Positions 13,696 to 45,832 of a stretch of 64,000 nucleotides of DNA are shown piece by piece; position 1 is the stretch's first letter; each line of letters starts with the position of its first letter. The notes beneath the pieces are model-generated. The model worked only from the letters and a program-made list of their open reading frames with translations. It searched no databases and was not told the DNA's origin. The DNA is taken from the NCBI RefSeq assembly GCF_053078305.1, contig NZ_CP166879.1. One strand, written 5' to 3'. The translations under genes were made by a program, and so were the position numbers.

Positions 13696-13707
13696 GATCG
13701 CTAAAAA

Positions 13708-15346: not shown

Positions 15347-15356
15347 GGACGCGATA

Positions 15357-15545
15357 ATGGAAACGTTATTACCAAACGTTAATACGTCTGAAGGGTGTTT
15401 TGATATTGGTGTTCTGCTCAGTAACCGGGAGTTTACTGAAGATGCCATTAAGATGAGAAAATATGAGCCTTATCTTCTCAATGATAATTCCATACTCTCC
15501 AGAATTGCCCTTCTTAAACTTGGTATTTTCGGGGGGCAGCAGTGA
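15357..15545 (+). CDS. dicB: Cell-division inhibitor DicB
   Basis: 62 aa; N-terminus METLLPNVNTSEGCF matches DicB as I recall it. Confidence 0.7.
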   Translation: METLLPNVNTSEGCFDIGVLLSNREFTEDAIKMRKYEPYLLNDNSILSRIALLKLGIFGGQQ

Positions 15546-15730
15546 CTTCTGCATTTGCACTGGTAATGACTGTTTTTCTTATAACGGGTGAGCCACAGAA
15601 TGTGATTACCGGAATTTATGCCAGTAAAGAATCATGCCTCCGGGCAAGAGACGAGCAAAAAATTTCTGGCGAATGCCTCCCGTTAAAAAAAGTATCGCTG
15701 TACCTGAATAACGAAATACCGGCTGGATAA
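15542..15730 (+). CDS. YdfD-like small membrane protein
   Basis: 62 aa with hydrophobic N-terminus, ATGA overlap with dicB. Confidence 0.45.
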   Translation: MTSAFALVMTVFLITGEPQNVITGIYASKESCLRARDEQKISGECLPLKKVSLYLNNEIPAG

Positions 15731-15822
15731 TCCACCAGCCATATTAACGCCATACCCGTTGATTAAGCATGCCAGCAATGGCAGGGGTTCGTACAACCTT
15801 AAAATAGTTATGAGGTTTATCC

Positions 15823-18261: not shown

Positions 18262-18319
18262 TGTTCAACCCTGATCGCCGCTAACCGCATATAGTTAGCG
18301 GCGGTTATGAGATATAGCT

Positions 18320-18523
18320 ATGAGCAGCTTATTTTTAACCGAAGATGAATTGCTAATATTAACGGGCTGCAAATATGCAAGCCACCAGCGCAACTGGTTA
18401 ATAAAAAATGGGCTTCCGTTCTATACCAATCGTAGTGGAAAACCGATCGTCAGTCGGGAACTGTTTACCTGTAGAAACACTTTACCACCACGTGAGGCTG
18501 AACCTGATTTCGGTGCGATCTAA
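18320..18523 (+). CDS. xis: Putative excisionase
   Basis: 67-aa ORF immediately upstream of and overlapping int. Confidence 0.5.
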   Translation: MSSLFLTEDELLILTGCKYASHQRNWLIKNGLPFYTNRSGKPIVSRELFTCRNTLPPREAEPDFGAI

Positions 18524-19548
18524 TGGGAAGACGAAGGAAAAATCCCGAACACGAAAAATTACCGCCAAAGGTATACCCCAATAAATATAGTTATGTATGG
18601 AAACCGACATCCAGAGAATCTGTAACCTTAACTGCAATCGAGGATGGTTTAGCCGCATTATGGAAAAAGTACGAAGAAACAATTAACCATCGCGATCGGG
18701 CAATGACATTTGGGCGTTTGTGGGAAAAATTTCTCGCCAGCGCCTATTACAGCGATCTTAGTCCCAGAACGCAAAAAGATTATCTGCAACATCAAAAAAA
18801 GCTGCTGGCCGTATTCGGTAAGGTGCTGGCCGATTCTGTAAAACCAGAGCACATCAGACGATACATGGACAAAAGGGGCGAGCAGAGTAAAACGCAGGCA
18901 AACCATGAAAAAAGCAGCATGTCACGCGTTTACAGTTGGGGGTATGAACGAGGGTATGTAAAGGCTAATCCTTGTGCCGGTGTAAGTAAATTCAAGGCCA
19001 AAAACCGAGAGCGCTATGTGACTGACAAAGAATACCAGGCCGTATTAAGCGTGGCTCCTGTGCCTGTTTTTATCGCAATGGAAATTGCATACCTGTGCGC
19101 AGCAAGGATTTCCGATGTGTTGTCTCTGAAATGGGAACAGATCGGAAACGACGGGATCTTTATCCAGCAAGGTAAAACAGGAAAGAAACAGATAAAAGCC
19201 TGGAGTCCCCGTCTGCAATCAGTTATAGAAAAAGCTAAACAGCTACCCAAGTCAGCCTATGTAATCAGCAATCAGTACGGCAACCGTTACATGTATAAAG
19301 GATTTAATGAAATGTGGGTTGAGGCAAGAAATTTGGCTGGACAAATATCAGGGATCGCGACGGATTTTACATTCCATGACCTTAAAGCCAAGGGGATATC
19401 AGATTACGAAGGTAGTAGCCGGGATAAGCAACTTTTCTCTGGTCACAAGACCGAAGGACAGGTGCTAATCTATGATAGAAAAGTAAAGATCTCACCCACA
19501 CTGGATGTACCATTACCCCAGAATATTCCAACAAAATATTCCAAGTAA
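18523..19548 (+). CDS. int: Tyrosine integrase, lambda Int family
   Basis: 341 aa; lambda-Int-like N-terminus MGRRRK; ends about 50 bp from the 3' end of serU. Confidence 0.85.
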   Translation: MGRRRKNPEHEKLPPKVYPNKYSYVWKPTSRESVTLTAIEDGLAALWKKYEETINHRDRAMTFGRLWEKFLASAYYSDLSPRTQKDYLQHQKKLLAVFGKVLADSVKPEHIRRYMDKRGEQSKTQANHEKSSMSRVYSWGYERGYVKANPCAGVSKFKAKNRERYVTDKEYQAVLSVAPVPVFIAMEIAYLCAARISDVLSLKWEQIGNDGIFIQQGKTGKKQIKAWSPRLQSVIEKAKQLPKSAYVISNQYGNRYMYKGFNEMWVEARNLAGQISGIATDFTFHDLKAKGISDYEGSSRDKQLFSGHKTEGQVLIYDRKVKISPTLDVPLPQNIPTKYSK

Positions 19549-19600
19549 TTCCAAGTGTGATTTTCGTCATTGACTTAATGATGTGTAAGTGATTGAATTC

Positions 19601-19690
19601 TGGTGGAGAGAGGGGGATTTGAACCCCCGGTGGAGTTGCCCCCACTCCGGTTTTCGAGACCGGTCCGTTCAGCCGCTCCGGCATCTCTCC
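19601..19690 (-). tRNA. serU: tRNA-Ser (anticodon CGA)
   Basis: 90-nt sequence GGAGAGATGCCGGAGCGGCTGAACGGACCGGTCTCGAAAACC...CTCTCTCCACCA. Confidence 0.85.
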
Positions 19691-20681: not shown

Positions 20682-20757
20682 TCCTCTGTAGTTCAGTCGG
20701 TAGAACGGCGGACTGTTAATCCGTATGTCACTGGTTCGAGTCCAGTCAGAGGAGCCA
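20682..20757 (+). tRNA. asnT: tRNA-Asn (GUU)
   Basis: Canonical 76-nt E. coli tRNA-Asn sequence. Confidence 0.9.
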
Positions 20758-20846
20758 AATTCTAAAAATTCGCTTCTTAGCGCAATGTCACTAACCTTAG
20801 TTGAACATTGTTTTTTAACGGATAGCGGGTTTTTAACATCTTAAGC

Positions 20847-20876
20847 GCCCTCGACCTTTATGGTTGAGGGCGTTTT
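20847..20876 (+). terminator. Rho-independent terminator after asnT
   Basis: 10-bp stem GCCCTCGACC / GGTTGAGGGC then GTTTT. Confidence 0.5.
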
Positions 20877-21069
20877 GCTATGAATGCCATCACCATTTTC
20901 CCCTCGATTATAAAACTTGAGTTATTCAGTAGTCTCCCCTCTTGCAACTCACACCCAAAACTGCCTAACGAAAAGTTATTAATTTTCAATCATATTGCTA
21001 TCAGGATTTACATTTTTTCGCTGTGCTAGAAAGGGCGCATTTATGTTAGCTCGTTCAGGGAAGGTAAGC

Positions 21070-29070
<8,001 letters not shown>

Positions 29071-29354
29071 TTTTTCGCTATATTTTCTTACAGAGTGCTC
29101 CATTCGGGGCGCTCTGCTTTTACATTCGTTTGCTATCAAACGCTCCATTAATATACCTGCATTTTCCCATACCTCCCTGTTAGTCTGAAGATAGTCGAGC
29201 CTCCTTTCGTTTTTAATAAACGCTTTCACACATGGTATAACCACCTGTTCCACGCCAGCGGGAAACAAAGTATATGATCTATTTTGATAACGATCATTGT
29301 TGCTATGTAGTCAAATTACGTTAATGTTTAGCTAAGTACATCAAGGAGGAAGAT

Positions 29355-29450
29355 ATGTCAGGACGTACAAACAATATCAGTTCATATTTCAATATTACAA
29401 ATTACATCAGTACCACTCATAATAATGTATGCCTGTTAACGGGGATTTAA
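29355..29450 (+). CDS. Candidate small ORF (31 aa, Asn/Ser/Thr-rich) with a perfect Shine-Dalgarno
   Basis: AAGGAGG 7 nt upstream of ATG; no homology recognised. Confidence 0.25.
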   Translation: MSGRTNNISSYFNITNYISTTHNNVCLLTGI

Positions 29451-29651
29451 GTTCAGGTTGTCTTATTTATGATGGTGAAATACATTACAATGTTTTAGTT
29501 CCACCAGATTCGCGTTCGGTGTGACTATGATCGTATCCGGTGAGTACAGCTTTGATCCAAAGGCTGGTTTTCTGTGATGATTGACCAGCCTCAGAGTATT
29601 GATGACACCACCGTTCATAACAGATCGGCATTACTTTGCATACGTACTGCC

Positions 29652-30704
29652 TCAAATTCTCGCCAAAACACTTTTTAATGCCTTTGCGAATTCATCCAGA
29701 CTTATATTGTCAATTTTTTTCCCAACGACGACTGACTCCGAAACATCGGCCATTGCGGGCCATCGCGTTTTGTAATCAGCATAAATTGCAACAACGGGAG
29801 TATTATAGGCACTTGCCATATGTAATATTGAGGTGTCAGGAGTTATTGCGATATAAGCATCTTTTATGATTGCTGCTGAACGTTTAATCGAGGGTGATAA
29901 GGATAAACGGTAGACATTATTATAACAATCCACTAATACCCTGGCTTTATCTTCCCCTTTTGGTCCATGAACGATCACTATTGGTATATCTGTTTCACTT
30001 TGAATTTTTTCTATTAGATTTTCTGCAATCGATAGTGAAAATGTACGTTCCTGCGAGCTACCTTCTAAATTAAGCGCAATGTAAGATCCTAACGATCGCA
30101 TTTCCTCGCGCACCTCATCGAGTACATCCTCACTTAGTGGCAATTCATATATTGGCCTGACTGCTGGAAAACCCGCCTCACGCATCATAAATGCCCATGT
30201 CATGGGTACGGGAGCCCGGAGATTCTGATCCATCCGGGACGCGTTCTTACACACAGGGGAATAGCACTTCATGGTTAAACCAACAACCTGAAAATTCGTT
30301 TTTGCTTTCAACTTACTGATAAATAACATCGTTTTCAGGTTCTTTTTACGCATCGCCTCTATACAAAGATCCGGCGTACCGTATTGCTGTGTTATGTTCT
30401 TCGCTAAATCTTTTATTTCTTTTAATGTTGCGTGATCCTGCATAGTCATTGTGACTAATGTTAATTTAGTCTGTTCAAGTTTGAGCGCATTAAAGACTTC
30501 TAAATTAATTGTCGACGTAACAATTAGTAGATGCTTAATTTTATGCAATTCAAGCGCCCGAATAACAGGAAAGATGGCCATAGCATCGCCAATCTGATCG
30601 GGAATATGGATGACAACAAAATCTGTTTTTTCAATATTGAAATTATAAGCTTTATAATCGTAGTAACTAAATGCAATATGTCTCAACAATGATGCTAAAA
30701 ACAT
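29652..30704 (-). CDS. yeeL: Glycosyltransferase family 9 (heptosyltransferase-like) YeeL, intact
   Basis: 350-aa uninterrupted ORF. Confidence 0.7.
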   Translation of the reverse strand: MFLASLLRHIAFSYYDYKAYNFNIEKTDFVVIHIPDQIGDAMAIFPVIRALELHKIKHLLIVTSTINLEVFNALKLEQTKLTLVTMTMQDHATLKEIKDLAKNITQQYGTPDLCIEAMRKKNLKTMLFISKLKAKTNFQVVGLTMKCYSPVCKNASRMDQNLRAPVPMTWAFMMREAGFPAVRPIYELPLSEDVLDEVREEMRSLGSYIALNLEGSSQERTFSLSIAENLIEKIQSETDIPIVIVHGPKGEDKARVLVDCYNNVYRLSLSPSIKRSAAIIKDAYIAITPDTSILHMASAYNTPVVAIYADYKTRWPAMADVSESVVVGKKIDNISLDEFAKALKSVLARI

Positions 30705-31018
30705 ACCTAACCTCGCCTCCCTACTGGTTATAATGCAATGCAGTCTATCAGACTCATCAGGGTGCCATTTTGTGCATATGCGGACTTTTATGTTTCATAT
30801 CTCGAACCTGTGGGTCCTCTGCTTAATCCTTAAACAACACCAGCAACTCCCGCGCTTTCATCTTCCAGCGAATTTTTCATGTTGCCGCTAATCAGCCATA
30901 AAATCATTTGCAGATGCGCTCTGTCGAGGTAGTCTCATAAGGTTCGTTTATAGATCGACGGCAATGTGAGTTACCTTTTCCATACTAATTATAAAAAGAC
31001 AGTACAAACAGGATCATT

Positions 31019-32335
31019 ATGGACTCCACGCTCATCTCCACCCGTCCCGATGAAGGGACGCTTTCGTTAAGTCGCGCCCGACGAGCTGCGTTAGGCAGTT
31101 TCGCTGGTGCCGTCGTCGACTGGTATGATTTTTTACTCTATGGCATCACCGCCGCACTGGTGTTTAATCGCGAGTTTTTCCCGCAAGTAAGCCCGGCGAT
31201 GGGAACGCTCGCCGCATTTGCTACCTTTGGCGTCGGATTCCTTTTCCGTCCGCTCGGCGGTGTCATTTTCGGTCACTTTGGCGACCGACTGGGACGTAAG
31301 CGCATGTTAATGCTGACCGTCTGGATGATGGGTATCGCGACAGCCTTGATTGGTATTCTTCCTTCATTCTCGACCATTGGGTGGTGGGCACCTATTTTAC
31401 TGGTGACGCTGCGTGCCATTCAGGGATTTGCCGTCGGCGGCGAATGGGGAGGCGCGGCGTTGCTTTCCGTTGAAAGTGCACCAAAAAATAAAAAAGCCTT
31501 TTACAGTAGCGGTGTACAAGTTGGCTACGGTGTAGGTTTACTGCTTTCAACCGGACTGGTTTCATTGATCAGTATGATGACGACTGACGAACAGTTTTTA
31601 AGCTGGGGCTGGCGTATTCCTTTCCTGTTTAGCATCGTACTGGTACTGGGAGCATTGTGGGTGCGCAATGGCATGGAAGAGTCCGCGGAATTTGAACAAC
31701 AGCAACATTATCAAGCTGCCGCGAAAAAACGCATCCCGGTTATCGAAGCTCTGTTACGACATCCCGGTGCTTTCCTGAAGATTATTGCGCTACGACTGTG
31801 CGAGTTGCTGACGATGTACATCGTTACCGCCTTTGCACTTAATTATTCAACCCAGAATATGGGGTTACCGCGCGAACTTTTCCTTAATATTGGTTTGCTG
31901 GTAGGTGGATTAAGCTGCCTGACAATTCCCTGTTTTGCCTGGCTTGCCGATCGTTTTGGTCGCCGCAGGGTTTATATCACAGGTGCGTTAATCGGAACGT
32001 TGAGCGCATTTCCTTTCTTTATGGCGCTTGAAGCACAATCTATTTTCTGGATAGTTTTCTTCTCCATAATGCTGGCAAACATTGCGCATGACATGGTGGT
32101 GTGTGTGCAACAACCGATGTTTACCGAAATGTTTGGTGCCAGTTATCGCTATAGTGGCGCTGGAGTCGGTTATCAGGTTGCCAGTGTGGTTGGTGGTGGA
32201 TTTACACCTTTTATTGCCGCTGCACTCATCACTTACTTTGCCGGGAACTGGCATAGCGTCGCCATTTATTTGCTGGCTGGATGCCTGATTTCCGCAATAA
32301 CCGCTTTGTTGATGAAAGACAATCAACGCGCTTGA
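31019..32335 (+). CDS. shiA: Shikimate transporter ShiA (MFS)
   Basis: 438 aa, multi-TM MFS signature. Confidence 0.85.
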   Translation: MDSTLISTRPDEGTLSLSRARRAALGSFAGAVVDWYDFLLYGITAALVFNREFFPQVSPAMGTLAAFATFGVGFLFRPLGGVIFGHFGDRLGRKRMLMLTVWMMGIATALIGILPSFSTIGWWAPILLVTLRAIQGFAVGGEWGGAALLSVESAPKNKKAFYSSGVQVGYGVGLLLSTGLVSLISMMTTDEQFLSWGWRIPFLFSIVLVLGALWVRNGMEESAEFEQQQHYQAAAKKRIPVIEALLRHPGAFLKIIALRLCELLTMYIVTAFALNYSTQNMGLPRELFLNIGLLVGGLSCLTIPCFAWLADRFGRRRVYITGALIGTLSAFPFFMALEAQSIFWIVFFSIMLANIAHDMVVCVQQPMFTEMFGASYRYSGAGVGYQVASVVGGGFTPFIAAALITYFAGNWHSVAIYLLAGCLISAITALLMKDNQRA

Positions 32336-32436
32336 TAGTCTGGCGAAGATCATCCGATCTTCGCCTTGCACTTTTGTTTCACATTTCTGTGACATACTAT
32401 CGGATGTGCGGTAATTGTATGGAACAGGAGACACAC

Positions 32437-33891
32437 ATGAATAATAAGGGCTCCGGTCTGACCCCAGCTCAGGCACTGGATAAACTCGACGCGCTGTATG
32501 AGCAATCTGTAGTCGCATTACGCAACGCCATTGGCAACTATATTACAAGTGGCGAATTACCTGATGAAAACGCCCGCAAACAAGGTCTTTTTGTCTATCC
32601 ATCACTGACCGTAACCTGGGACGGTAGCACAACCAATCCACCTAAAACGCGCGCATTTGGTCGTTTTACTCACGCAGGCAGCTACACCACCACGATTACT
32701 CGCCCTACTCTCTTTCGTTCGTATCTTAATGAACAACTTACGTTGCTGTATCAGGATTATGATGCGCATATCTCGGTGCAACCCTCGCAGCATGAAATCC
32801 CTTATCCTTATGTCATCGATGGCTCTGAATTGACACTTGATCGCTCAATGAGCGCTGGGTTAACTCGCTATTTCCCGACAACAGAACTGGCGCAAATTGG
32901 CGATGAAACTGCAGACGGCATTTATCACCCAACTGAATTCTCCCCGCTATCGCATTTTGATGCGCGCCGCGTCGATTTTTCCCTCGCGCGGTTGCGTCAT
33001 TATACTGGTACGCCAGTTGAACATTTTCAGCCGTTCGTCTTGTTTACCAACTACACACGTTATGTGGATGAATTCGTTCGTTGGGGATGCAGCCAGATCC
33101 TCGATCCTGATAGTCCCTACATTGCCCTTTCTTGTGCTGGCGGGAACTGGATCACCGCCGAAACCGAAGCGCCAGAAGAAGCCATTTCCGACCTTGCATG
33201 GAAAAAACACCAGATGCCAGCATGGCATTTAATTACCGCCGATGGTCAGGGTATTACTCTGGTGAATATTGGCGTGGGACCGTCAAATGCTAAAACCATC
33301 TGCGATCATCTGGCAGTGCTACGCCCGGATGTCTGGTTGATGATTGGTCACTGTGGCGGATTACGTGAAAGTCAGGCCATTGGCGATTATGTACTTGCAC
33401 ACGCTTATTTACGCGATGACCACGTTCTTGATGCGGTTCTGCCACCCGATATTCCTATTCCGAGCATTGCTGAAGTGCAACGTGCGCTTTATGACGCCAC
33501 CAAGCTGGTGAGCGGCAGGCCCGGTGAGGAAGTCAAACAGCGGCTACGTACTGGTACTGTGGTAACCACAGATGACAGGAACTGGGAATTACGTTACTCA
33601 GCTTCTGCACTTCGTTTTAACTTAAGCCGGGCCGTAGCAATTGATATGGAAAGTGCAACCATTGCCGCGCAAGGATATCGTTTCCGCGTGCCATACGGGA
33701 CACTACTGTGTGTTTCAGATAAACCGTTGCATGGCGAGATTAAACTTCCCGGTCAGGCTAACCGTTTTTATGAAGGCGCTATTTCCGAACACCTACAAAT
33801 TGGCATTCGGGCGATCGATTTGCTGCGCGCAGAAGGCGACCGACTGCATTCACGTAAATTACGAACCTTTAATGAGCCGCCGTTCCGATAA
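32437..33891 (+). CDS. amn: AMP nucleosidase
   Basis: 484 aa from ATG 32437 with GGAG upstream; the ORF track has an over-extended start. Confidence 0.85.
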   Translation: MNNKGSGLTPAQALDKLDALYEQSVVALRNAIGNYITSGELPDENARKQGLFVYPSLTVTWDGSTTNPPKTRAFGRFTHAGSYTTTITRPTLFRSYLNEQLTLLYQDYDAHISVQPSQHEIPYPYVIDGSELTLDRSMSAGLTRYFPTTELAQIGDETADGIYHPTEFSPLSHFDARRVDFSLARLRHYTGTPVEHFQPFVLFTNYTRYVDEFVRWGCSQILDPDSPYIALSCAGGNWITAETEAPEEAISDLAWKKHQMPAWHLITADGQGITLVNIGVGPSNAKTICDHLAVLRPDVWLMIGHCGGLRESQAIGDYVLAHAYLRDDHVLDAVLPPDIPIPSIAEVQRALYDATKLVSGRPGEEVKQRLRTGTVVTTDDRNWELRYSASALRFNLSRAVAIDMESATIAAQGYRFRVPYGTLLCVSDKPLHGEIKLPGQANRFYEGAISEHLQIGIRAIDLLRAEGDRLHSRKLRTFNEPPFR

Positions 33892-34233
33892 TAAGTTCTG
33901 AACCTTCTTATCAAAAATAGATGTGAAGGATTAAGTAAGACATCTGGCAAATAGCCCGCAATAAACGCGGGCTGTTTGCTTCCTTGGGCGGATACGAGTT
34001 TTATTATCGTCTTAATGATTTCCACATATTAAAAGCAAGTATGCTTTCAAAACACAATTATAAAAAATCCCGCCAACAATATAAGTTTTTATAAAATTAA
34101 ATATAAGATTATGGCTTTAGAATATTTTTATTTCTAATAGACGAGATTTTTCCTGTTATGATATAATATGCCGAATTAACACATGTTAACGATTTACCAG
34201 TAATGTAAATAAATTTTCGAGGAGATCATTCCA

Positions 34234-34950
34234 GTGGGACGTAAATGGGCCAATATTGTTGCTAAAAAAACGGCTAAAGACGGTGCAACGTCTAAAATTT
34301 ATGCAAAATTCGGTGTAGAAATCTATGCTGCTGCTAAACAAGGTGAACCCGATCCAGAATTAAACACATCTTTAAAATTCGTTATTGAACGTGCAAAGCA
34401 GGCACAAGTTCCAAAGCACGTTATTGATAAAGCAATTGATAAAGCCAAAGGCGGCGGAGATGAAACGTTCGTACAGGGACGTTATGAAGGCTTTGGTCCT
34501 AATGGCTCAATGATTATCGCCGAGACATTGACTTCAAATGTTAACCGTACGATTGCTAACGTTCGCACAATTTTCAATAAAAAAGGCGGCAATATCGGAG
34601 CGGCAGGTTCTGTCAGCTATATGTTTGACAATACTGGTGTGATTGTATTTAAAGGAACAGACCCTGACCATATTTTTGAAATTTTACTTGAAGCTGAAGT
34701 TGATGTTCGTGATGTGACTGAAGAAGAAGGTAACATTGTTATTTATACTGAACCTACTGACCTTCATAAAGGAATCGCGGCTCTAAAAGCAGCTGGAATC
34801 ACTGAGTTCTCAACAACAGAATTAGAAATGATTGCTCAATCAGAAGTTGAGCTTTCCCCAGAAGATTTAGAAATCTTTGAAGGGCTTGTTGATGCCCTTG
34901 AAGATGACGACGATGTACAAAAAGTTTATCATAACGTCGCAAATCTCTAA
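34234..34950 (+). CDS. yeeN: YebC/PmpR-family regulator YeeN
   Basis: 238 aa, GTG start with GAGGAG upstream. Confidence 0.8.
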
Positions 34951-35305
34951 TTATCTTTTAAAGAAATCTGTCTTTATGGCAGATTTCTTTAATCTCATAT
35001 AATCCTTATAAAAAATATAATGTTCAACTCGTCATATTGCTTATAAAAAATCCTCGTTCCCAGAGAAATAATATTTATTAAAATGGCAGGTCTTCTTTTT
35101 CTGATTACCGAAGACAAAGTGGCAATTACGTATAGTTTCCCGATAAAGACGCGACAGCTACATCCCGCATAAGGCATTTTTCTCTTTATCTTTGTACGGT
35201 ACTTCATGGAACAGAATTTTTGACCTTGTGAATCGTGATGTCTGTTGGGGAGGAGCAATTTGCTCACTGAAGCGTGAGACTCGATTAAGCGCACGAAACA
35301 CAGAA

Positions 35306-35343
35306 ATCAAAAAACCCGGCCACTTTTTTACAAAGTGACCGGG
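35306..35343 (-). terminator. Rho-independent terminator downstream of asnW
   Basis: Palindrome CCCGGCCACTTT..AAAGTGACCGGG flanked by A/T runs. Confidence 0.5.
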
Positions 35344-35405
35344 TAAAAATAATTTTTATTTTTTAACTGCCTTGAGACTCATAGAGATGTCTCAAAACTA
35401 AAATT

Positions 35406-35481
35406 TGGCTCCTCTGACTGGACTCGAACCAGTGACATACGGATTAACAGTCCGCCGTTCTACCGACTGAACTACAGAGGA
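35406..35481 (-). tRNA. asnW: tRNA-Asn (GUU)
   Basis: Reverse complement of the canonical tRNA-Asn sequence. Confidence 0.9.
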
Positions 35482-35581
35482 ATCGTGAGAACGAGGCGAA
35501 TATTAGCGATGCCCACCCACAATGTCAAAGCCTGTTTTTTAAATTTGAAATCGTTTGCTGAAATAATCTGCATTTTGTCGT

Positions 35582-37222
35582 TTATTCCGACACAACTGGC
35601 TTTTTTTCACACTTTTGCGGCTCGGATCGAGGGTATTTCCATAGCCAACGTCCAGTAACCATTCGCCAGTAAAACAGCACGGCCCGCACAGCCCAGTCGG
35701 CAAACATTCCCATCCAGACACCAACCACACCCCAGCCAAGCATGATGCCCAGCACATAACCGACGACAACCCGGCAACCCCACATGCTCAACATAGAAAC
35801 CCACATAGCGTAACGGGCGTCACGAGCCCCCTTAAATCCAGCGGGTAGCACCCATGAGGCGGACCAAATAGGCATAAATAAAGCATTTAGCCAAATCAGA
35901 ATCACAACGACATGTTTAACCTGTGGATCCTGGGTGTAAAACGATGCCATAACCCCGGCAAAGGGAGCCGTTAGCCAGGCGATGGCCGTTAATCCAAGAG
36001 TGGAAAGCCAGAACACATGCCGCAACTGAATCTCTGCTTGCGCTATCTGCCCTACCCCCAACCTTCGGCCTGTAATGATCGTAGAAGCAGAGCCGAGCGC
36101 ACTTCCGGGTAAGTTGATAAGAGCCGCAATTGAAAACGCGATAAAATTTCCGGCAATAACACTGGTCCCCATCCCGGCAACGAACATTTGGGTTAATAAC
36201 CGACCACTGGTAAATAACACTGATTCGACACTCGCGGGAATACCAATCCCCATGACTTCCCAGATAATGCTAAAATTCAGTGGCTTAAAATAGCTCTTTA
36301 ACGAAATCCTTAGCGCAGGATTAAAACCAATCGCCAACACCCACAAAATTGCAACTGCGCCAATATAACGAGAAATGGTTAAACCCAACCCAGCCCCGAC
36401 AAATCCCAGTCCCGGCCAGGAGAAAAGGCCGTAAATCAATATGCCGCTAATAATAATATTAAGAATATTCAGGCTACCGTTAATCAGTAGCGGTATTTTC
36501 GTATTCCCTGCACCACGAAGTGCCCCGCTACCAATTAGAGTGATGGCAGCTGCTGGATAACTGAGTACCGTCAGCTCCAGATAAGTCAACGCCAGTGCTT
36601 TAACTTCTGTCGTGGCATCACCCGCGACGAAATCAATAATTTGCTCGCCAAAATGATGAATAAGCGTTGCCAACAGTACGGCAAACAACGTCATGATCAC
36701 CAATGACTGCCGCGTCGCCACCCTCGCTCGTCGTCGATCCCGCTTACCGAGACTAAATGCCACAACGACAGTAGTACCAAGATCGATAGCAGCAAAAAAA
36801 GCCATAATGACCATATTGAAGCTGTCCGCCAATCCCACGCCGGCCATCGCATCTTTTCCCAGCCAACTGACCAGAAAAGTGCTCAGAACCCCCATCAACA
36901 GGACACAGGCATTCTCCATGAAGATAGGAACAGCAAGCGGGGTTATCTCGCGCCAGAACAACACTTTGTAGCTCTTGCGTTTAGCGTGCCAGCGAGTGCC
37001 GTGAACAACCTGGCGTAAAGCAGAGGAGATATTCAAAGCCGACCTTAATTGCAGAAAGTGAAACCACATTTCAAATAATGAGGGAGAATCAGCAAAGCTG
37101 CAAAGATTTTCGCCAACAAATTGTCTGCAAATGCAACAAACTGTTGATAGAAACGGCAAACAGTTGGGGAATTTAAAAATCGGGTTTGACAAAAGATTTT
37201 TCGCCGTTAAGATGTGCCTCAA
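35582..37222 (-). CDS. yeeO: MATE-family efflux transporter YeeO
   Basis: 546-aa ORF, multi-TM; the true start is probably internal. Confidence 0.75.
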   Translation of the reverse strand: MRHILTAKNLLSNPIFKFPNCLPFLSTVCCICRQFVGENLCSFADSPSLFEMWFHFLQLRSALNISSALRQVVHGTRWHAKRKSYKVLFWREITPLAVPIFMENACVLLMGVLSTFLVSWLGKDAMAGVGLADSFNMVIMAFFAAIDLGTTVVVAFSLGKRDRRRARVATRQSLVIMTLFAVLLATLIHHFGEQIIDFVAGDATTEVKALALTYLELTVLSYPAAAITLIGSGALRGAGNTKIPLLINGSLNILNIIISGILIYGLFSWPGLGFVGAGLGLTISRYIGAVAILWVLAIGFNPALRISLKSYFKPLNFSIIWEVMGIGIPASVESVLFTSGRLLTQMFVAGMGTSVIAGNFIAFSIAALINLPGSALGSASTIITGRRLGVGQIAQAEIQLRHVFWLSTLGLTAIAWLTAPFAGVMASFYTQDPQVKHVVVILIWLNALFMPIWSASWVLPAGFKGARDARYAMWVSMLSMWGCRVVVGYVLGIMLGWGVVGVWMGMFADWAVRAVLFYWRMVTGRWLWKYPRSEPQKCEKKPVVSE

Positions 37223-37229
37223 CAGCGAT

Positions 37230-37305
37230 TCCTCTGTAGTTCAGTCGGTAGAACGGCGGACTGTTAATCCGTATGTCACTGGTTCGAGTCCAGTCAGAGG
37301 AGCCA
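37230..37305 (+). tRNA. asnU: tRNA-Asn (GUU)
   Basis: Canonical sequence. Confidence 0.9.
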
Positions 37306-37316
37306 AATTTCTGAAA

Positions 37317-37342
37317 AGCCCGCTTTTATAGCGGGCTTTTTG
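37317..37342 (+). terminator. Terminator after asnU
   Basis: Stem AGCCCGC / GCGGGCT then T5. Confidence 0.5.
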
Positions 37343-38293
37343 CTATATCTGATAATCAATTTCCTCTTCACTGTTTTCCATCACCTGGCGCTTGATATCC
37401 TCAACTGACAGTCCTGCATTACAAAGTTCCAGAAAGCGCCAGACATAGTTACGCTGAAGTTGTCCTCGCTTGAGTCCCAACCAGACAGTATTAGCATCGA
37501 AAAGATGCCGCGTATCCAGGCGGATTAAATTCTTTTCCTCTTGTTCACCGCTGGATTGTTCGGCAACTAATCCGATCCCAAGCCCAAGAGCAACATAGGT
37601 TTTAATGACATCAGAATCCTGCGCACTTAATACAATATCTGCCAGCAAACCTTTGCGGGCAAATGCGTCATCAATACGTGAGCGCCCCGTAATCCCCTGT
37701 CGGTAAGTGATTAACGGCCACTTCGCTATTGACTCCAGCGTCAATGGTGTAATTTGCGTCAAGGGATGATCGAGTGGAACAAGCAAACTATGGTGCCAAC
37801 GAAACCACGGGAAGGCGACGAGCTGCGGGTCATTACTCAAACGCTCGCTGGCGATACCAATATCAGCTTCACCATTATGCAACAACGTCGCAATTTCCTG
37901 TGGCGTCCCCTGGATTAGCTCGAGCCGAACCTCCGGGAAAAGTTCGCGAAAAGCTTTAATGACCTCTGGCAAGCTATAACGTGCCTGAGTATGCGTCGTT
38001 GCAATAGTGAGAACGCCAGACGTATCGTTGGTAAACAGGTCTGCAAGCCGACGAACATTACTGGCTTCATTGAGAATACGTTCTGCAATGACCAGTAATG
38101 CTTTGCCCGGTTCAGTCATGCCCAGCAATCGCTTACCTCGTCGAACAAATATTTCGATGCCAAGTTCATCCTCCAGTTCCCGAATATGACGGCTGACGCC
38201 TGACTGTGAGGTAAAAAGCATATTCGCAACCTCTGTCAGGTTGTAATCCTGACGTGCAGCTTCGCGGATTATCTTTAGTTGTTGGAAATTCAC
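37343..38293 (-). CDS. cbl: LysR-family regulator Cbl (CysB-like)
   Basis: 316 aa. Confidence 0.85.
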   Translation of the reverse strand: MNFQQLKIIREAARQDYNLTEVANMLFTSQSGVSRHIRELEDELGIEIFVRRGKRLLGMTEPGKALLVIAERILNEASNVRRLADLFTNDTSGVLTIATTHTQARYSLPEVIKAFRELFPEVRLELIQGTPQEIATLLHNGEADIGIASERLSNDPQLVAFPWFRWHHSLLVPLDHPLTQITPLTLESIAKWPLITYRQGITGRSRIDDAFARKGLLADIVLSAQDSDVIKTYVALGLGIGLVAEQSSGEQEEKNLIRLDTRHLFDANTVWLGLKRGQLQRNYVWRFLELCNAGLSVEDIKRQVMENSEEEIDYQI

Positions 38294-38394
38294 GGTAAAC
38301 TCCGGGCAGTTCAGATATCCCGTTATTGTTAAAGTCTAACGCCCGGCATAACAAATAATAAAAACCCGCATCTTATTCCATCCCGATATAACGC

Positions 38395-39312
38395 TTAGCT
38401 CACCAATTGCCACTGCCTTTTTTCCATCACTGGAGAACTAATCACTGACATTAACAACTCTTTCACTGCCTGTGCCTGTGGCGATAAGTTCGCTCTGGCG
38501 GGTAAATTTAATGACAAAGAGAGACTCATGGAAGGCGTGGTAATGCGTGACATCCACCCATTTACTGCGCCACATAACGAACGCGCGGCCGATTCGGGTA
38601 ATACTGCAACGCCCATGCCGCTGGCAATCGCTGCGGTAAGCGTGGCAATAGACTCAATTTCACCAATGACTTTTGCCGTGAGCCGCCGTAGGGAAAACGC
38701 CTCATCAACACGAAGTCTAACAGCGCTGTAATCACTGGGGAGAAAAAGGTTCATTTGTGCAATAGCATTAACATCAACGCTTTGCCCCGGGCAATCTTGA
38801 GTTCCTACCAGGAAAAGATCTTCTTTCAGCAAAGCCTGACTGGATACCCCAGCCACAGGGGAATGCTCATAAATCACCGCCATATCGAGTTGGTGATTTA
38901 TCAGTTTTTCGTTAAGCACTGCACCGCTATTTTCATGAAGATAGATAACGATCTCCGGGAATTCAGCGCGAACCGCCTGTAATAAGGGCATGGTGATGGA
39001 TGACGCAGCGGTTCCTGGCGCAAAGCCAATCGAGACTTGCCCCGATAATGCCTGACCAACGTTATGCACCGCCAGTTGGGCCTGCTCACACTGACGTAAA
39101 ATGGCCCGCGCATGGGTATAGAGAATTTTTCCGGCGTCAGTTGGCGTAACGCCCCGTTTTGTGCGAATCAAAAGTTGTTGATTTAACTCACCTTCCAGTG
39201 TGGCAACCTGCTGGCTGAGCGCTGGTTGTGCGATATGCAATACTTCAGCAGCCTGGGTCAGGCTACCAATATCTACAATTTTTACGAAGTATTTAAGGCG
39301 TCTGAAGTTCAT
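38395..39312 (-). CDS. nac: Nitrogen assimilation control protein Nac (LysR family)
   Basis: 305 aa from ATG 39312, MNFRRLKYFVKIVDIGSLTQAA. Confidence 0.85.
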   Translation of the reverse strand: MNFRRLKYFVKIVDIGSLTQAAEVLHIAQPALSQQVATLEGELNQQLLIRTKRGVTPTDAGKILYTHARAILRQCEQAQLAVHNVGQALSGQVSIGFAPGTAASSITMPLLQAVRAEFPEIVIYLHENSGAVLNEKLINHQLDMAVIYEHSPVAGVSSQALLKEDLFLVGTQDCPGQSVDVNAIAQMNLFLPSDYSAVRLRVDEAFSLRRLTAKVIGEIESIATLTAAIASGMGVAVLPESAARSLCGAVNGWMSRITTPSMSLSLSLNLPARANLSPQAQAVKELLMSVISSPVMEKRQWQLVS

Positions 39313-39637
39313 GTTGCCTCCGGTTTTTAAGAATCGGCCCAAGTGCCGCCATTACTTACAACCAGATTGCAAGATGCTTGCCAGTTTTATTTTGGCGTTG
39401 ATGTACAAGCTAACCAACTGTCAAATAAGAGATTATGATAGATTCGTCATTGGCTCTTTTCACCAGCAGTCGCGTTCCCCTGCCCTATAAAAGGAGGGTA
39501 TGCACCACGATGGTTCATTACCAATAAGATTGAAATCTCATCACTTTGTTGAAATTGGCAGCAAACAAACAAAAAAATGCATTTCACCCTTTGACATCAC
39601 CATGCACTGCCATTAATATGCGCCCCGTTCACACGAT

Positions 39638-39713
39638 TCCTCTGTAGTTCAGTCGGTAGAACGGCGGACTGTTAATCCGTATGTCACTGGTTCGAGTCCA
39701 GTCAGAGGAGCCA
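39638..39713 (+). tRNA. asnV: tRNA-Asn (GUU)
   Basis: Canonical sequence. Confidence 0.9.
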
Positions 39714-39723
39714 AATTCAAAAA

Positions 39724-39748
39724 AGCCTGCTTTCTAGCAGGCTTTTTG
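39724..39748 (+). terminator. Terminator after asnV
   Basis: Stem AGCCTGC / GCAGGCT then T5. Confidence 0.5.
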
Positions 39749-39768
39749 CTTTCTAATTACCAACGCTC

Positions 39769-40704
39769 TTAAAACATCTGTCTTGAACCAGAACTAATTT
39801 GCACAGGCATTCCCGATCGACGTTGCAACGCAGCATTTGCGCGATTCACATCAACTTCTTGCCCGTTGATAAACGCCCGCAAAGATGGGGTTACCGGCAA
39901 TGGCACTTTTCGGTCAGACTCATATTCTGCACGATTGCGCGACAGCGGCTCATGAACTTCCAGCCAGTTCGAGCCATCTGGTTCAGTGGTGTATTTTACT
40001 GGCTGGTCGATAATTTGCACACGCGTCCCAACAGGAACATTATCAAACAGATATTTGATATCGTCATTGCGCAGACGAATACAGCCCTGACTTACCCGGA
40101 GCCCAATACCAAAATTGGCATTGGTACCGTGGATGGCATACAACCTGCCAATATAAATCGCGTACAGCCCCATGGGATTATCGGGACCCGCAGGAACAAA
40201 TGCGGGCAAACTCTCCCCTCGTTTCGCATATTCGCGCCGAGTGTTCGGCGTTGGCGTCCAGGTTGGAGCTTCTTGTTTACGTTCAACGGTAGTCACCCAG
40301 TTACGCGGGGTTTCTCGCCCGGCCTGACCGATTCCAATAGGAAAGACTTCTACAGTATTACTGTCTGGCGGGTAGTAATAAAGACGCATCTCAGCGACGT
40401 TAACCACAATCCCTTTACGAACAGTGGCGGGCAAAATCAGTTGCTGCGGAATGGTGAGTTGCGAGCCAGACTTCGGCAAAAAAACATCAGCGCCCGGGTT
40501 CGCTTCAAGCATGTTACTTAACCCTTGCCCGTATTGTGCGGCAAAAGTCTCCAGCGGCTGGGTATTGTGATCAGGAACAGTTACAGTAAACGACTGCCCC
40601 ACTAAACGGCTACCCTCTGGAGGTAATGGATAAGTTACCGCCAGGCTAGTATGGCTGGCAAAAAGCAGAGCAAATGAGCAAAGAATATTTACACGACGCA
40701 TCAT
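39769..40704 (-). CDS. ldtA: L,D-transpeptidase LdtA (ErfK)
   Basis: 311 aa with signal peptide and YkuD-type catalytic region. Confidence 0.8.
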
Positions 40705-40765
40705 GTCCCTTTCCTAAGTCGCGAAAGCTATCCGTTAAGTATAGCTTTTATCAGACTTTTCGTTT

Positions 40766-41845
40766 TTAACTGTTCAAATCAGAAGTCGTATTCCCCGGTA
40801 GAACAATATTACTGGCAGCAAGTTCGCCCATGTTGTTATATATCGCACAGGCAGCTTCGATGATGGGCATCGCCAGAGCTGCGCCACTCCCCTCACCTAA
40901 ACGCATCTCCATATTGAGATAAGGCTCCAGCCCCAAATGCGACAGCGCTATACGCGCCCCTTTTTCTGCCGACAGGTGAGAAGGAATGAGATACGGTTTG
41001 ATTGCAGGAGACATCTGGCAGGCTGCGAGCGCAGCAGCATAAGAAAGAAATCCATCCAGCAACACGGGTAAACCGCAGGAAGCAGCGCCTAACATCACGC
41101 CAGCCATTCCGACCAAATCAAATCCACCCACTTTTGCCAGAACATCAACGCCATCCTGCGGATTTGGTTGATTCAACGTAATCGCCCGGCGCACAACATC
41201 AATTTTATTAGCCAGTTTATCTGTCGGCAGGTTTGCGCCAATCCCAACCACTTCTTCAGGATCCCGGCCAGTGATTGTGCTGACTATTGCTGCTGCCGGT
41301 GTCGTGTTTGCCATCCCCAGTTCACCTACACCAAACAGCGTGACACCGTTTTTTGCCAGCTCCCGCGTATAACATATGACGTCCAAAAGCAACGTTTCAG
41401 CCTGACGGCGACTCATTGCCGGAGCTGAAGCAATATTGCCGCTACCTCGTGCGACACGCATGTTGATAAGCCCGGGGATAGGCTCAGCAGTATCAATACC
41501 AACATCAACTACGTGGACGTTAGCGCCCGCTTGTGCTGCCAGCACACACACGCCGGTTGTTCCGCGGGTCATATTTTCAGCCTGAATGGCTGTCACTTCT
41601 TTTGGGGAAATAGCGACCCCTTCCTCCCAGACGCCGTGATCGGCACACATAACCAGTACCGCTTTTTTGCCCACATGCAGTATGCCATTCAACCCCGGCA
41701 TTCCTGCCAGTTGTATGGCAAGCGCCTCCAGCCTTCCCAGGCTACCAACAGGTTTGAGTAACCCGTCAATATGCCGTTGTGCACGCGACATAGCGGCAGG
41801 ATCGATGGCAGGGATCGTATTCAGTAAATCGGCAAGTGTTTGCAT
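40766..41845 (-). CDS. cobT: Nicotinate-nucleotide-dimethylbenzimidazole phosphoribosyltransferase
   Basis: 359 aa. Confidence 0.85.
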
Positions 41846-41856
41846 GTCACGTCTCT

Positions 41857-42600
41857 TTATAGCAGTGCCAGCAGGAAGACCAGTTCACCAAGCTCTATAG
41901 CAGCTCCCAGCGTATCGCCGGTTTGCCCGCCCAGCGTACGTTTGAGAAGCTGACCGAGGATGAAAATCGCCACCATCGTCACCACCATAGCAGCCACACC
42001 ATGCATACCCGGCAATAATACGGCAGCAAAAATAGCGGCCAAGCCGAGTGTGACGCAGGTTTGTCGCCCATCAATTTTGCCAATGAACACATTGCCAAGT
42101 CCTTCTTCCCGGGCATAACGATGACGATACATCAATAATGCGGCAGTCCCGCGGCTGACCGCACATGCTGCCGCCAGCGATGCAAGGATCGGTTCGCCAC
42201 GCAGAGCCAACTCGCTTAATACCAGAATCTTTGCCAGTACAACAAAAATCAATGCCAGACCGCCGTGGGTGCCTAAACGGCTATCACGCATGATTTCCAA
42301 CATGCGATCGCGGCTACGTGCAGAAAATACGCCATCACAGGTATCGGCGAGGCCGTCCAGGTGGAATCCCCCGGTCATCAGCGCCAGCACAAGCACGCTA
42401 AACAGTGCCGCCAGTGGTACGCCACACCATGCCTGCAGCACCGTGAAGACCAGCCCGCTAATCGCGCCAAGCAATAATCCAATTAAAGGAAAAGTAATAA
42501 TACCGCGAGAATAATGCTCGAAATCCAGTCCCTGGGACCAGCGACGCGGTACAGGCAGACGCGTAATAAATGAGAGCATCGCCCAAAATAATTTACTCAT
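41857..42600 (-). CDS. cobS: Cobalamin synthase
   Basis: 247 aa from ATG 42600; membrane protein. Confidence 0.85.
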
Positions 42601-43142
42601 TTGATTTTTACTCCAATACCCGAAACCACCAGCCATACTTCATTAGCCGCAGCGGCCAGCTGCTGATTTACCCGCCCGGCAATATCACGAAAATGTCGTG
42701 CCAGACGACTCTCCGGCACAATCCCCATTCCCACTTCGTTAGTCACTAATACAACCTTTGCGGGGCAACGTTGGCAGGCAGCAATCAACGACTGAATCTC
42801 AACATGAATCGCCTGTTCCATCGCCTGATAATCCCATTCATCAGGGTCCTTATCGCCGCCATAATCAAACAACAGATTAGTCACCATTGTGGTAACGCAT
42901 TCCAGCAACACAGCTTCATGCGGGTTAATGTCTGCATGAATTAATTCATCAACATGTTGCCAACGCTCCACCGTGCGCCAGTGCGCCGGGCGGCCTTTCC
43001 GATGATGTTCTATCCGTGCAGCCATCTCATCATCAAGGATTTGCGAGGTGGCGATATACAGAACCTGTGAAGAGTCCCCAATAAGCGCCTCTGCGTGGCG
43101 ACTCTTCCCGCTCCGTGCTCCACCTGTCACCAAAATCATCAT
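42597..43142 (-). CDS. cobU: Adenosylcobinamide kinase / adenosylcobinamide-phosphate guanylyltransferase
   Basis: 181 aa from ATG 43142; P-loop GGARSGKS. Confidence 0.85.
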
Positions 43143-43365
43143 ACCGACTCCTGATTCAATTGTATGATGGTATTCATTGAACAGAACAATGGATCCCCCA
43201 CCGTTGCTGACCACAAAACATTTACGCGATTAATACTGCGCGTAATATAATTAAAAATCCAGCATTCTCAACCCATTACGAAAGAAGATGGCATTGTGGA
43301 ATAGCCAGACTTCCTCGTGTTAACGTCCGATCATTGGAGTAGTCACCAAAGCAGATTTAGCCAGC

Positions 43366-43500
43366 ATGGAACAAATATCTTTGGTGAAATGTTGGTTACG
43401 GGAAGCCGGAGCGCACAACGTGTTAGTAACCAGTGCGGTTAATAACAATGGAGTTACAGAACTTTTTGCCTTGCTGCATACAGAAGATGTCTGTCGCTAA
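43366..43500 (+). pseudogene. Short ORF that may be a gene remnant (possibly yoeF-like) in the cobU-yeeX spacer
   Basis: 44-aa ORF; speculative. Confidence 0.2.
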
Positions 43501-43600
43501 TTTCGATAGGTTATCAGATGGGAATGATGACTTTGATACACAGAAAAGAATCAATGAGCAATGAGGGTTGCCGGGCAACCCTCATTGAATAAAACAGGAA

Positions 43601-43930
43601 TTACTTCGCTTCGCCGTTTTTCATTTCGCCCATAGCTTTCAGCTTTTTGGAGATATCACGGCGTTCTTTGGAGAGCTCGGCATTTTTGATGATGTAATCG
43701 TCAACGCGATCTTCATAGTCACCTTTCATGCTGGCGATGATGCCCTGGATTGCTTCAACGCTCATCCCCGGCTTGATGTAATCGCTCAGGTTGTCCAGCA
43801 GCAGGACGCGCTTCTGGTTGTCACGGATCTTTTTCTCAACGTCCTGAATTTCACGTTGCAGTTTGTTCTTACGACGGAACAGACGAACAAATTCCAGTAC
43901 GTCCTGGAATGAAGGCTTGGTAGTTTCCAT
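43601..43930 (-). CDS. yeeX: DUF496 protein YeeX
   Basis: 109 aa from ATG 43930, [14 protein letters not shown]. Confidence 0.8.
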
Positions 43931-44101
43931 TTTTATACCCCTGATAATGTGAGAGTCGGATTCGTTTAAGCAACCGCTATTCGTTAGGGCCAACATTACT
44001 CATAGCTGCCGCAGATGACAATGCTTTTATCCCTTTTCACTATCATACCCTTTATCCTTGCTGAATCGAAGCAGCAGCAAGATGATTCTGAAGTTCAGGA
44101 A

Positions 44102-45160
44102 TTATTTGCGCAAGGCCCGGCAAATCAGATTCGATAGCAACTCAAGCTGATGCGCCGTTTCCATGTTCAGCCACACATAACCATAGATTGGTGTTTCCAC
44201 AACCTTCAGGTCATGGTGGTTATTGAGCAACTGACGCAGCTCTTCCACAGCATCGTTCAATTTTTCCGTATTGGCAAAAACCGGCTGCGGATTACCTTCG
44301 TACAGCGCATGAACAAGGCTCAGCAGTATTTGCTGCATCATGTGCTGGGTGTCACGAAGTTTTTGCGCGTTCAATAACACGAAATGGCTGGGGCGCGTGG
44401 CCCAGTATGCATTGATTTGCAACTCCAGCATACAAACCAGATTGCGGTTAATGGTCTGGATACCTTCATATATCGATTTTGGAATACGGGTTTCTTTGCT
44501 GGCGGGCGCAATCAACCCACGCATTTTCACGGCATCGGTCAAGAGTTTTTGTAGATGGCTTTCCAGACGTGGGCGTTCGAGTAAGTTCGGTGAGAATGCA
44601 GATTGATAGACCCGATTATACTCGGTCAGACTTTTCGCCAGTTGAATACGCCAGTGGATGAACGCCCGTTGTGGCCAGATACCGGTAAACAACATTGCCA
44701 GTAAAGAGCCGAGGATCACATCGCCGCTTCGCCATAACGCCGTATCAATTTCACCTGTAGGGGAACCCACAACAATTGCCAGCGTCACCCCAATCAATAA
44801 ACCTTGATACGGTTTCTTGCCCAGCGCCAGCCAACCGCAAAGAAACATAGCCGCCGCGCACCAGACTAACATCAGCGGTAACGAAATTAACTCCAGTTGC
44901 AGAGCGATAAGACCTAAAATCGAACCCAACACCGTACCGCCAATACGCTCAAAGGCGCGAGGGACAACGTTACCCCAGAACGAGATTGGCCCCATAATCA
45001 CCACCATGGTGACCAGCGGCCAGGTGCTTTCCGGGATAGTAAACAGGCGGATAATGAGAAAAGTGAGCAGGAATGCCAGCGCGACCCGAGTACCATGCAC
45101 AATGCGGTAATGGCGGTATACCCGGATTTCAAACGGGCTTAATGACTTATCGGCACGCAC
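44102..45160 (-). CDS. yeeA: Inner membrane protein YeeA (FUSC-like)
   Basis: 352 aa. Confidence 0.8.
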   Translation of the reverse strand: MRADKSLSPFEIRVYRHYRIVHGTRVALAFLLTFLIIRLFTIPESTWPLVTMVVIMGPISFWGNVVPRAFERIGGTVLGSILGLIALQLELISLPLMLVWCAAAMFLCGWLALGKKPYQGLLIGVTLAIVVGSPTGEIDTALWRSGDVILGSLLAMLFTGIWPQRAFIHWRIQLAKSLTEYNRVYQSAFSPNLLERPRLESHLQKLLTDAVKMRGLIAPASKETRIPKSIYEGIQTINRNLVCMLELQINAYWATRPSHFVLLNAQKLRDTQHMMQQILLSLVHALYEGNPQPVFANTEKLNDAVEELRQLLNNHHDLKVVETPIYGYVWLNMETAHQLELLSNLICRALRK

Positions 45161-45358
45161 GCAGAAACTCCGTAATGAAGATTAAAAGCGCTCATAACTC
45201 ATCTGTCGGCCAGAAGGCGCGCCTCTGAATTATCCGACGGACAAACCGGGAACAGTGTAATTTCCCGGCAGGAGCGAAAAAATTGAAAGGCGCATCTTAC
45301 TCTTTTCGCTTTCAAAAAAAAGAGTGGTCATCGCGTTAACACACCGCCCTGAGATGAA

Positions 45359-45832
45359 TTAGTGATGTTTTGGCTGCACCGCAACATACATTTCGATATC
45401 CCAGTACCCATCTTCCGCGCCATTGTTCAAATAAACCTCGAAGCAGGGCTTTGGTAACATTTCATAAGCACTGTCCTGCAAGAGGCTATTAAAGAACTGA
45501 TACCAGGGTTTAGCAAAATCATCACCGACTACACGAGCTACCGCCACCGCATACTGACCACCTGAAATTTCTGTCAGAATGACGCCCTCACTGTTTTCGG
45601 GAAGCGTAAAGTAACCCGGCACCGTCACGACGGTGTCGCAGCGTAATTTTTCGGCGGGTGTTTCATCTGGATTGTCGTAATAGACAGCAACCCACTCCTT
45701 CGGCACAATATTTTTACTATCTACCCACATCATCAACTGCTCAAAACCTTTCTTTACCGTCTGTTCCCACGGGCCAACGAGATGGAAACCTGCAACGGTA
45801 CGTTTCTCTTCCTGCTTAATCTCGTAGTTCAT
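45359..45832 (-). CDS. sbmC: DNA gyrase inhibitor SbmC (GyrI)
   Basis: 157 aa. Confidence 0.85.

Follow-up and report, generated by a model that had tools for sequence, protein, structure and literature searches.

A cobU-tmaR spacer in Escherichia coli interpreted as the remnant of a lost propanediol-utilisation locus

The two genes cobU and yeeX stand only 458 bp apart in the 64,000-nucleotide stretch of contig NZ_CP166879.1 that we analysed (the window), and this spacer is probably a non-functional scar, formed when a pdu+ E. coli ancestor lost its propanediol-utilisation (pdu) locus. Here we use the name tmaR for yeeX, as does the annotation of K-12 and of all compared genomes. The first-pass annotation, which had put the spacing at about 460 bp, took the spacer for an empty CP4-44 site. 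The island is indeed absent, but alignment with K-12, in which CP4-44 does lie at the cobU-yeeX junction, identified a deletion scar rather than an unoccupied site, most plausibly that of a 17,664-bp loss of pocR, pduF and pduA to pduV. Neither CP4-44 DNA nor DNA of the O157 cobU island was found anywhere in the window. The cobU-tmaR interval is well known to vary, and the spacer is thus one of its alleles, free of the island and deleted for pdu, which represents ordinary strain variation and known biology. The pdu operon is an accessory trait that occurs intermittently in E. coli, its presence or absence being already documented (PMC9836092), and the finding has little import beyond annotation and strain typing.

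Make-up of the spacer and the missing 17,664 bp

The features of the spacer and its two flanking genes are as follows.

42597 to 43142, minus strand: cobU (cobinamide kinase / guanylyltransferase), 181 aa, intact, collinear with K-12 cobU (Pfam CobU PF02283, E=1.8e-63)
43244 to 43271, minus strand: candidate sigma-70-like promoter for cobUST, TTGAGA-16-TATATT, 10/12 consensus matches, about 100 nt upstream of cobU
43276 to 43330, minus strand: 3' end of a CbiG-like 145-aa ORF, about 17 codons (...TLTRGSLAIPQCHLLS) and the stop codon; the translation equals the C-terminus of the ORF at L006 18927-19364
43324 to 43330, no strand: deletion junction CGTCCGA, with left parent ...GTTAACGTC[C/T]GACAAAATG and right parent ...ATGAATCGCCCGATCATTGG
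43324 to 43503, plus strand: 3' remnant of pduV, codons 90-147 and the stop codon; the translation, RPIIGVVTKADLASMEQ...HTEDVCR and stop, is near-identical to residues 90-147 of pdu+ PduV
43366 to 43500, plus strand: 44-aa ORF, equal to pduV codons 104-147, beginning at the internal Met104 and confined to the C-terminal part of the GTPase domain
43559 to 43587, no strand: perfect hairpin with a 13-bp stem and a 3-nt loop, located where the pduV remnant and tmaR converge, starting 13 nt past the tmaR stop codon
43601 to 43930, minus strand: yeeX (tmaR), 109 aa, intact (Pfam DUF496, E=2.3e-45)

The spacer extends from 43143 to 43600, with the cobU start codon at 43142 and the tmaR stop codon at 43601-43603. 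While cobT, cobS and cobU are all encoded on the minus strand, yeeA, sbmC and dacD follow beyond tmaR. From cobU onwards, the spacer first holds 133 bp of DNA proximal to cobU, then the end of the CbiG-like ORF and the 58 final codons of pduV, and lastly a pduV-tmaR intergenic piece of 97 bp that includes the hairpin.

The origin of these pieces becomes apparent by comparison, using BLAST and alignment, with the pdu+ reference E. coli strain 2014C-4587 (locus L006). There, yeeA and tmaR are followed by a convergent pduV and the operon back to pduA, then by pduF, pocR, a cobalamin riboswitch, the 145-aa ORF and cobU-cobS-cobT, an order that recurs in a second pdu+ genome. Window positions 42597-43330 and 43324-43930 match two L006 sites that are 17,664 bp apart, the missing DNA being L006 1646-19309. 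Lost are the 5' 60% of pduV, 18 further genes of the pdu operon back to pduA, pduF, pocR, the riboswitch and most of the CbiG-like ORF; among the lost pdu genes, PduU, T, P, O, M, J, E, C, B and A are identified by name, and the others by their enzyme or shell-protein descriptions. The 145-aa ORF, flanked in pdu+ E. coli by the cobalamin riboswitch and cobU, matches CbiG over the latter's N-terminal third (NCBIfam NF004463, E=1.6e-19). Hence, both halves of the spacer are the outermost remnants of the pdu locus known from pdu+ E. coli and from Salmonella, where pocR-pduF and pduA to pduV lie next to cob, whereas no functional pdu gene, and neither pocR, pduF nor the riboswitch, is left in the window. 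The Pdu microcompartment, PocR and PduF would consequently be absent, and the strain is predicted to be unable to use 1,2-propanediol.

In Salmonella the gene order is pduBAF-pocR-cbiA..P-cobUST (PMC5282855). In pdu+ E. coli (L006 18534-19497; L010 2290-3120), the cobalamin riboswitch is kept and all cbi genes are gone, and the last gene of the pdu operon, pduV, is the immediate neighbour of tmaR, pduW and pduX being absent. Lawrence and Roth, writing in 1996 on the loss of cob and pdu in enteric bacteria, reportedly found that of the cob operon only cobUST is left in E. coli, as is also the case in the annotations considered here.

At the breakpoint, the sequence GTGTTAACG[T/C]CCG[A/G]TCATTGG joins the tail of the CbiG-like ORF to pduV codon 90, and this junction defines the pdu-deletion allele that we designate W. 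In the proposed ancestor, cobU would have been preceded by the CbiG-like remnant ORF, the riboswitch, pocR and pduF, and a divergent pduA-to-pduV operon would have ended convergently against tmaR, an arrangement that some 12% of complete genomes still have. An illegitimate deletion at 2-7 bp of microhomology (AACG|CCCGATC, or within CCGA) may then have joined the last ~17 CbiG-like codons to pduV codon 90. The 17,664 bp could have been lost in one step or, alternatively, by a 410-bp second step from a smaller deletion allele (B, see below), and the W allele would later have spread among lineages via homologous recombination.

The K-12 island and the alleles of the interval

The first-pass annotation was correct in that K-12 carries CP4-44, with flu and the cbeA/cbtA pair, between cobU and yeeX. 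In MG1655 the island is annotated between exactly these flanks and includes IS5, IS2, yeeP, isrC, flu, yeeR/S/T, cbeA, cbtA, yeeW, yoeD and yoeF. Furthermore, islands named for cobU ('PAI-cobU') have been described in CFT073, 536, UTI89, RS218 and other ExPEC strains (PMC7545054). CP4-44 of K-12 and the UPEC 'PAI-cobU' occupy the same cobU-tmaR interval as the window spacer, but the window has no island DNA and its breakpoints differ, by 117 bp on the left and by 6-8 bp on the right. More precisely, the left flank of K-12 is homologous to the pdu+ allele for 117 bp past the window breakpoint (L6rc 23693-23809), and its right flank starts 6-8 bp earlier in pduV (ATGAATCAC, codon 88; L6rc 41344-41349) with bases that are absent from the window. 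Accordingly, the interval replaced by the K-12 island is L6rc 23810-41343, and the one missing from the window is 23693-41356. Since K-12 keeps on either side DNA that is missing in the window, the two alleles are not interconvertible by insertion or by precise excision. At this locus the window strain is also predicted to lack Ag43 and the CbtA/CbeA pair.

The right end of the island in K-type genomes is a C-terminal fragment of an IS66-family transposase (yoeD; PF13817, E=5.8e-16) that is fused to pduV nt 262, and its left end is an internal fragment of an IS4-family transposase. At the ends of the K-12 island, we found no att direct repeats, no IS termini and no integrase or other cognate recombinase, and there are no repeats between the island's own ends; a 3-4 bp CCG(A/G) overlap with the window is all that is shared, and site-specific integration of the K-12 island was rejected accordingly. 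Both island boundaries are illegitimate junctions, because both ends are truncated IS fragments and not att sites or IS termini. The right-end architecture of K-12 recurs, with other island cargo, in O157:H7 and a canine isolate, which indicates one ancestral event. CP4-44 would represent a separate allele of the interval, with nearly the same 17.5 kb replaced by an island that has truncated IS fragments at its boundaries, and the window allele most likely never contained this island.

A census of 5,426 complete E. coli genomes distinguished four alleles, which could serve to mark recombination history.

K, K-12-type right junction, island-bearing: 4,172 genomes (77%)
pdu+, full pduU-pduV: 644 genomes (12%)
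W, window-type junction: 331 genomes (6%)
B, smaller deletion: at least 169 genomes (3%)

ATCC 8739 is among the carriers of W. The replaced or deleted intervals are nested, that of B lying inside that of K and that of K inside that of W, so that the missing interval of B is wholly contained in the one missing from the window. In B, 17,254 bp are missing at a junction with 5 bp of microhomology, leaving a cobU-tmaR spacer of 868 bp (versus 458 bp in the window) in which a 119-aa CbiG-like ORF and pduV from nt 146 are kept. Thus, genomes such as isolate 162, PS10-3 and GDSC2227PM resemble the window in being island-free, in having cobU close to tmaR and in retaining remnants of the same two genes, but keep longer stretches of both, with an extra 286 bp of the CbiG-like ORF and an extra 124 bp of pduV. 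The flank backgrounds of B alleles (L007 2001-2868, L008, L009, L017, L019) differ from one another by ~1-2% (17-35 SNPs in 1.4-1.8 kb).

Across 17-20 loci, SNP tables and distance matrices revealed heavily mosaic flank haplotypes, too mixed to point to a parent of the window allele and implying that W moved between backgrounds by recombination. The left haplotype CATTGT occurs in all sampled W sequences, and also in K-type (L016, L018) and B-type (L017) genomes. The best match to window positions 41500-45500 is a B-type genome with 99.4% identity, whose right flank has 4 differing sites in 2.1 kb when the three junction-proximal sites are set aside. As no complete genome among the 5,426 scores higher, the source lineage of the window is not represented in this set.

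One further feature of the region, an IS621 copy in yeeA, has the same layout in the pdu+ genome JNE131328 (L010 20779-23116) and in the W genome JNE132847 (L014 3960-6297), and in GMM060 an IS621 transposase likewise lies next to the FUSC-family (yeeA) gene. IS621 is strongly site-specific, and independent insertions at one site are plausible. We discounted this insertion as a marker of relatedness, as it probably reflects a site-specific IS621 target and not shared ancestry.

Parent of the W allele

Comparison of the junction sequences favours a pdu+ or B parent of W over loss of an island. The window has A and C at positions 43330 and 43344, like pdu+ 2014C-4587 and the B strain PS10-3, whereas G and A are found in K-12, O157 and CUVET; across these sites, no fewer than 93% of K alleles show the K-12 sequence. 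Moreover, a CGC-bearing pdu+ or B parent offers a 2-bp CG microhomology at AACG|CCCG, whereas the CAC codon of K offers none, and only a 410-bp deletion is needed to convert B into W. The B-type genome that best matches window positions 41500-45500 points the same way.

W itself is not uniform. Three variants can be distinguished at positions 43326/43330/43344, namely T-A-C in 173 genomes including the window, C-A-C in ~30 and C-G-A in ~125; over 60 bp at the junction, the window sequence recurs exactly in 173 genomes. C-A-C is the likeliest original junction, as it is one step away from each of the other two variants. A single origin of W has to explain all three by later mutation or by gene conversion very near the junction. 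Both the window and strain S10 combine junction-proximal sites of one haplotype with a remaining right flank of another, which implies recombination breakpoints within tens of bp of the junction.

A K-12-like parent, from which the whole CP4-44 or PAI-cobU island would have been deleted together with the 117 bp of left flank and the 6-8 bp of pduV remnant, is the alternative that fares best, and we consider it unlikely. It would agree with the W interval fully enclosing the K interval, with right endpoints just 8 bp apart (pduV nt 262 in K and nt 270 in W), and with K being the majority allele (4,172/5,426). In addition, the left-flank haplotype of W is found in some K genomes, by which an early view of the K haplotypes as distant was weakened, and the C-G-A variant of W has the G..A sites typical of K. 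However, not a single island-derived base is left at the junction, the A..C sites of the window set it apart from the great majority of K alleles as described above, the CAC codon of K deprives AACG|CCCG of microhomology, and the deletion would have had to span 12.8 to 43 kb, against 410 bp from B. Even the closeness of the right endpoints is left unexplained by island loss, and a distance of 8 bp within a permissible stretch of ~240 bp would arise by chance in ~5% of cases.

W could in principle have arisen more than once, if the 17.7-kb deletion occurred several times on different parental haplotypes between the short imperfect repeats CCTCGTGTTAACG and CCTCGTCAATGAATCG, a scenario that we regard as very improbable. 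Such recurrence would account for the existence of three junction variants, whose right-hand sites fit two parental haplotypes (A..C and G..A) and which differ at sites lying just 4 and 18 bp away from the junction, a distance over which ordinary recombination rarely separates markers. It would likewise account for W flanks that are near-identical to different pdu+ or B genomes, for instance S10 compared with JNE131328 (2 SNPs in 1.4 kb) or the window compared with GDSC2227PM (4 SNPs in 2.1 kb, junction-proximal sites excluded). Yet the exact microhomology amounts to just 2-4 bp across 17.7 kb, which makes a repeat of the deletion to the same base improbable, and the left CATTGT haplotype is common to all sampled W sequences. 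The junction-proximal sites could also have been converted by heteroduplex extending to the homology boundary, followed by mismatch repair.

Finally, the reading of the spacer as a pristine attB, with K-12 being the window sequence plus CP4-44, has next to no chance of being right: the flanks are contiguous in the window and a pairwise alignment places the K-12 island between the same flanks with a 4-bp CCG(A/G) overlap, but the three-way alignment of window, K-12 and pdu+ allele has already refuted it on sequence grounds, as K-12 has 117 bp more of the ancestral left flank and ATGAATCAC more of pduV than the window (which is hence not the occupied allele minus its island, with or without a target duplication), the island ends lie inside IS66-family and IS4-family transposase genes with no adjacent integrase, and both alleles derive from the pdu+ state.

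Retained elements and neighbouring features

On the cobU side, loss of the intervening DNA has removed the B12 riboswitch of cobUST, and an Rfam scan of 42500-44200 detected neither a cobalamin riboswitch nor any other Rfam family. Stripped of the riboswitch and of the upstream promoter, cobUST would have to depend on a proximal promoter. The candidate listed above lies inside the 133-bp cobU-proximal segment that is retained by every allele, although the match alone is not significant, as the consensus scan found 1 promoter site versus 2.0 expected in shuffles. The remnant of the CbiG-like ORF in K-type genomes is labelled 'cobalamin biosynthesis protein' by PGAP.

On the other side of the junction, the first-pass annotation had suspected a gene remnant in the 44-aa ORF at 43366-43500, and rightly so, since this plus-strand ORF is the tail of pduV. 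In-frame homology extends from codon 90 (RPIIGVVTKADLAS...) to the stop codon and is preceded by an in-frame TAA at 43321-43323. The ORF aligns with full-length 147-aa PduV proteins of E. coli and matches Pfam PduV-EutP PF10662 at profile positions 106-142 of 143 (E=3.5e-5), compared with E=5.5e-55 for full-length PduV. Members of the EutP/PduV GTPase family (PF10662 / TIGR02528) have ~143-147 aa and an N-terminal P-loop, GPSQCGKTS, and the 44-aa ORF has neither this length nor the P-loop. The same stretch is annotated by PGAP as an incomplete EutP/PduV pseudogene in S10, ET120 and ATCC 8739. No function is expected for the ORF, because it lacks the P-loop and an evident ribosome-binding site and is a PGAP pseudogene in several W genomes. 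An origin from an island gene was ruled out by its homology to the chromosomal pduV.

The same tail also bears on K-12 yoeF (b4538), which has been counted among the uncharacterised genes of CP4-44 (PMC11551758) and which PGAP treats as a pseudogene of an 'EutP/PduV family microcompartment system protein'. This gene (L001, NC_000913.3, 15576-15932) is a chimera, the first ~58 codons of which run antisense to the IS66-family transposase fragment yoeD, while the last ~60 are pduV codons 88-147. Its conserved half therefore corresponds to the same pduV tail as the 44-aa ORF, but the window lacks the part antisense to yoeD and has an in-frame stop there instead. Although yoeF usually figures among the CP4-44 genes of unknown function, its conserved half is thus left over from the chromosomal pduV rather than part of the island's cargo.

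A perfect 13-bp palindrome, proposed earlier to span 43559-43589 and to terminate yeeX, is real with regard to its stem, and ends at 43587. Its arms, 43559-43572 and 43574-43587, are 100% complementary (14-nt arms, effectively 13 bp of stem and 3 nt of loop), and its sequence is unique in the window, with 0 occurrences expected by chance. The 81-nt context, taken as RNA of the yeeX strand, is predicted to fold with -23.9 kcal/mol (z = -3.6), and 0/200 shuffles folded as well. The hairpin is thus stable, G+C-rich and positioned just downstream of the yeeX stop codon, but it is followed by no U-tract on either strand (the tail on the tmaR strand reads CUCAUUGAUUCUUUUC) and was not called in a terminator scan. 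A role in termination is plausible from the fold prediction, and the hairpin may act as a weak terminator or as a stabiliser of the transcript 3' end. Retained past tmaR, it probably ends or stabilises the tmaR transcript.

The hairpin is conserved in pdu+, K-12, W and most B alleles, and the pduV tail together with the hairpin is present in 5,423/5,426 genomes, having been spared by all three independent breakpoints. The pduV tail and hairpin might be kept because they serve tmaR as a 3' end or antisense element. This reading, like that of the interval as a hot spot of recurrent 17.7-kb pdu deletion, we regard as improbable.

As for mobile DNA elsewhere in the window, the first-pass annotation had concluded from the empty cobU locus that the prophage content of this strain is at serU. 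A prophage is indeed located there, but the inference does not follow, since this element is a lambdoid prophage unrelated to CP4-44 and thus says nothing about the cobU locus. Its genes match the families of phage replication protein O, exonuclease VIII, antirepressor and methyltransferase, and the following features were assigned.

1 to 19690: lambdoid prophage at serU
982 to 1231: prophage tRNA genes (tRNA-Arg, tRNA-Arg, tRNA-Met)
6707 to 6882: sok RNA
14243 to 14294: DicF RNA
14542 to 14618: isrK RNA
14644 to 14731: C4 RNA
18523 to 19548: integrase (PF00589)
19601 to 19690, minus strand: serU

The presence of stx beside the prophage tRNA genes was considered and rejected, as the first 985 nt encode a DNA methyltransferase instead. 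Between serU and the cob genes, four tRNA-Asn genes lie at 20682, 35406, 37230 and 39638 (region 20682-39713), next to which no island-sized gap or integrase was noticed in the ORF list. Other strains have the yersiniabactin island at asnT and the colibactin island at asnW (PMC7545054). At the pdu+ locus L006, integrases lie beside two of the asn tRNA genes.
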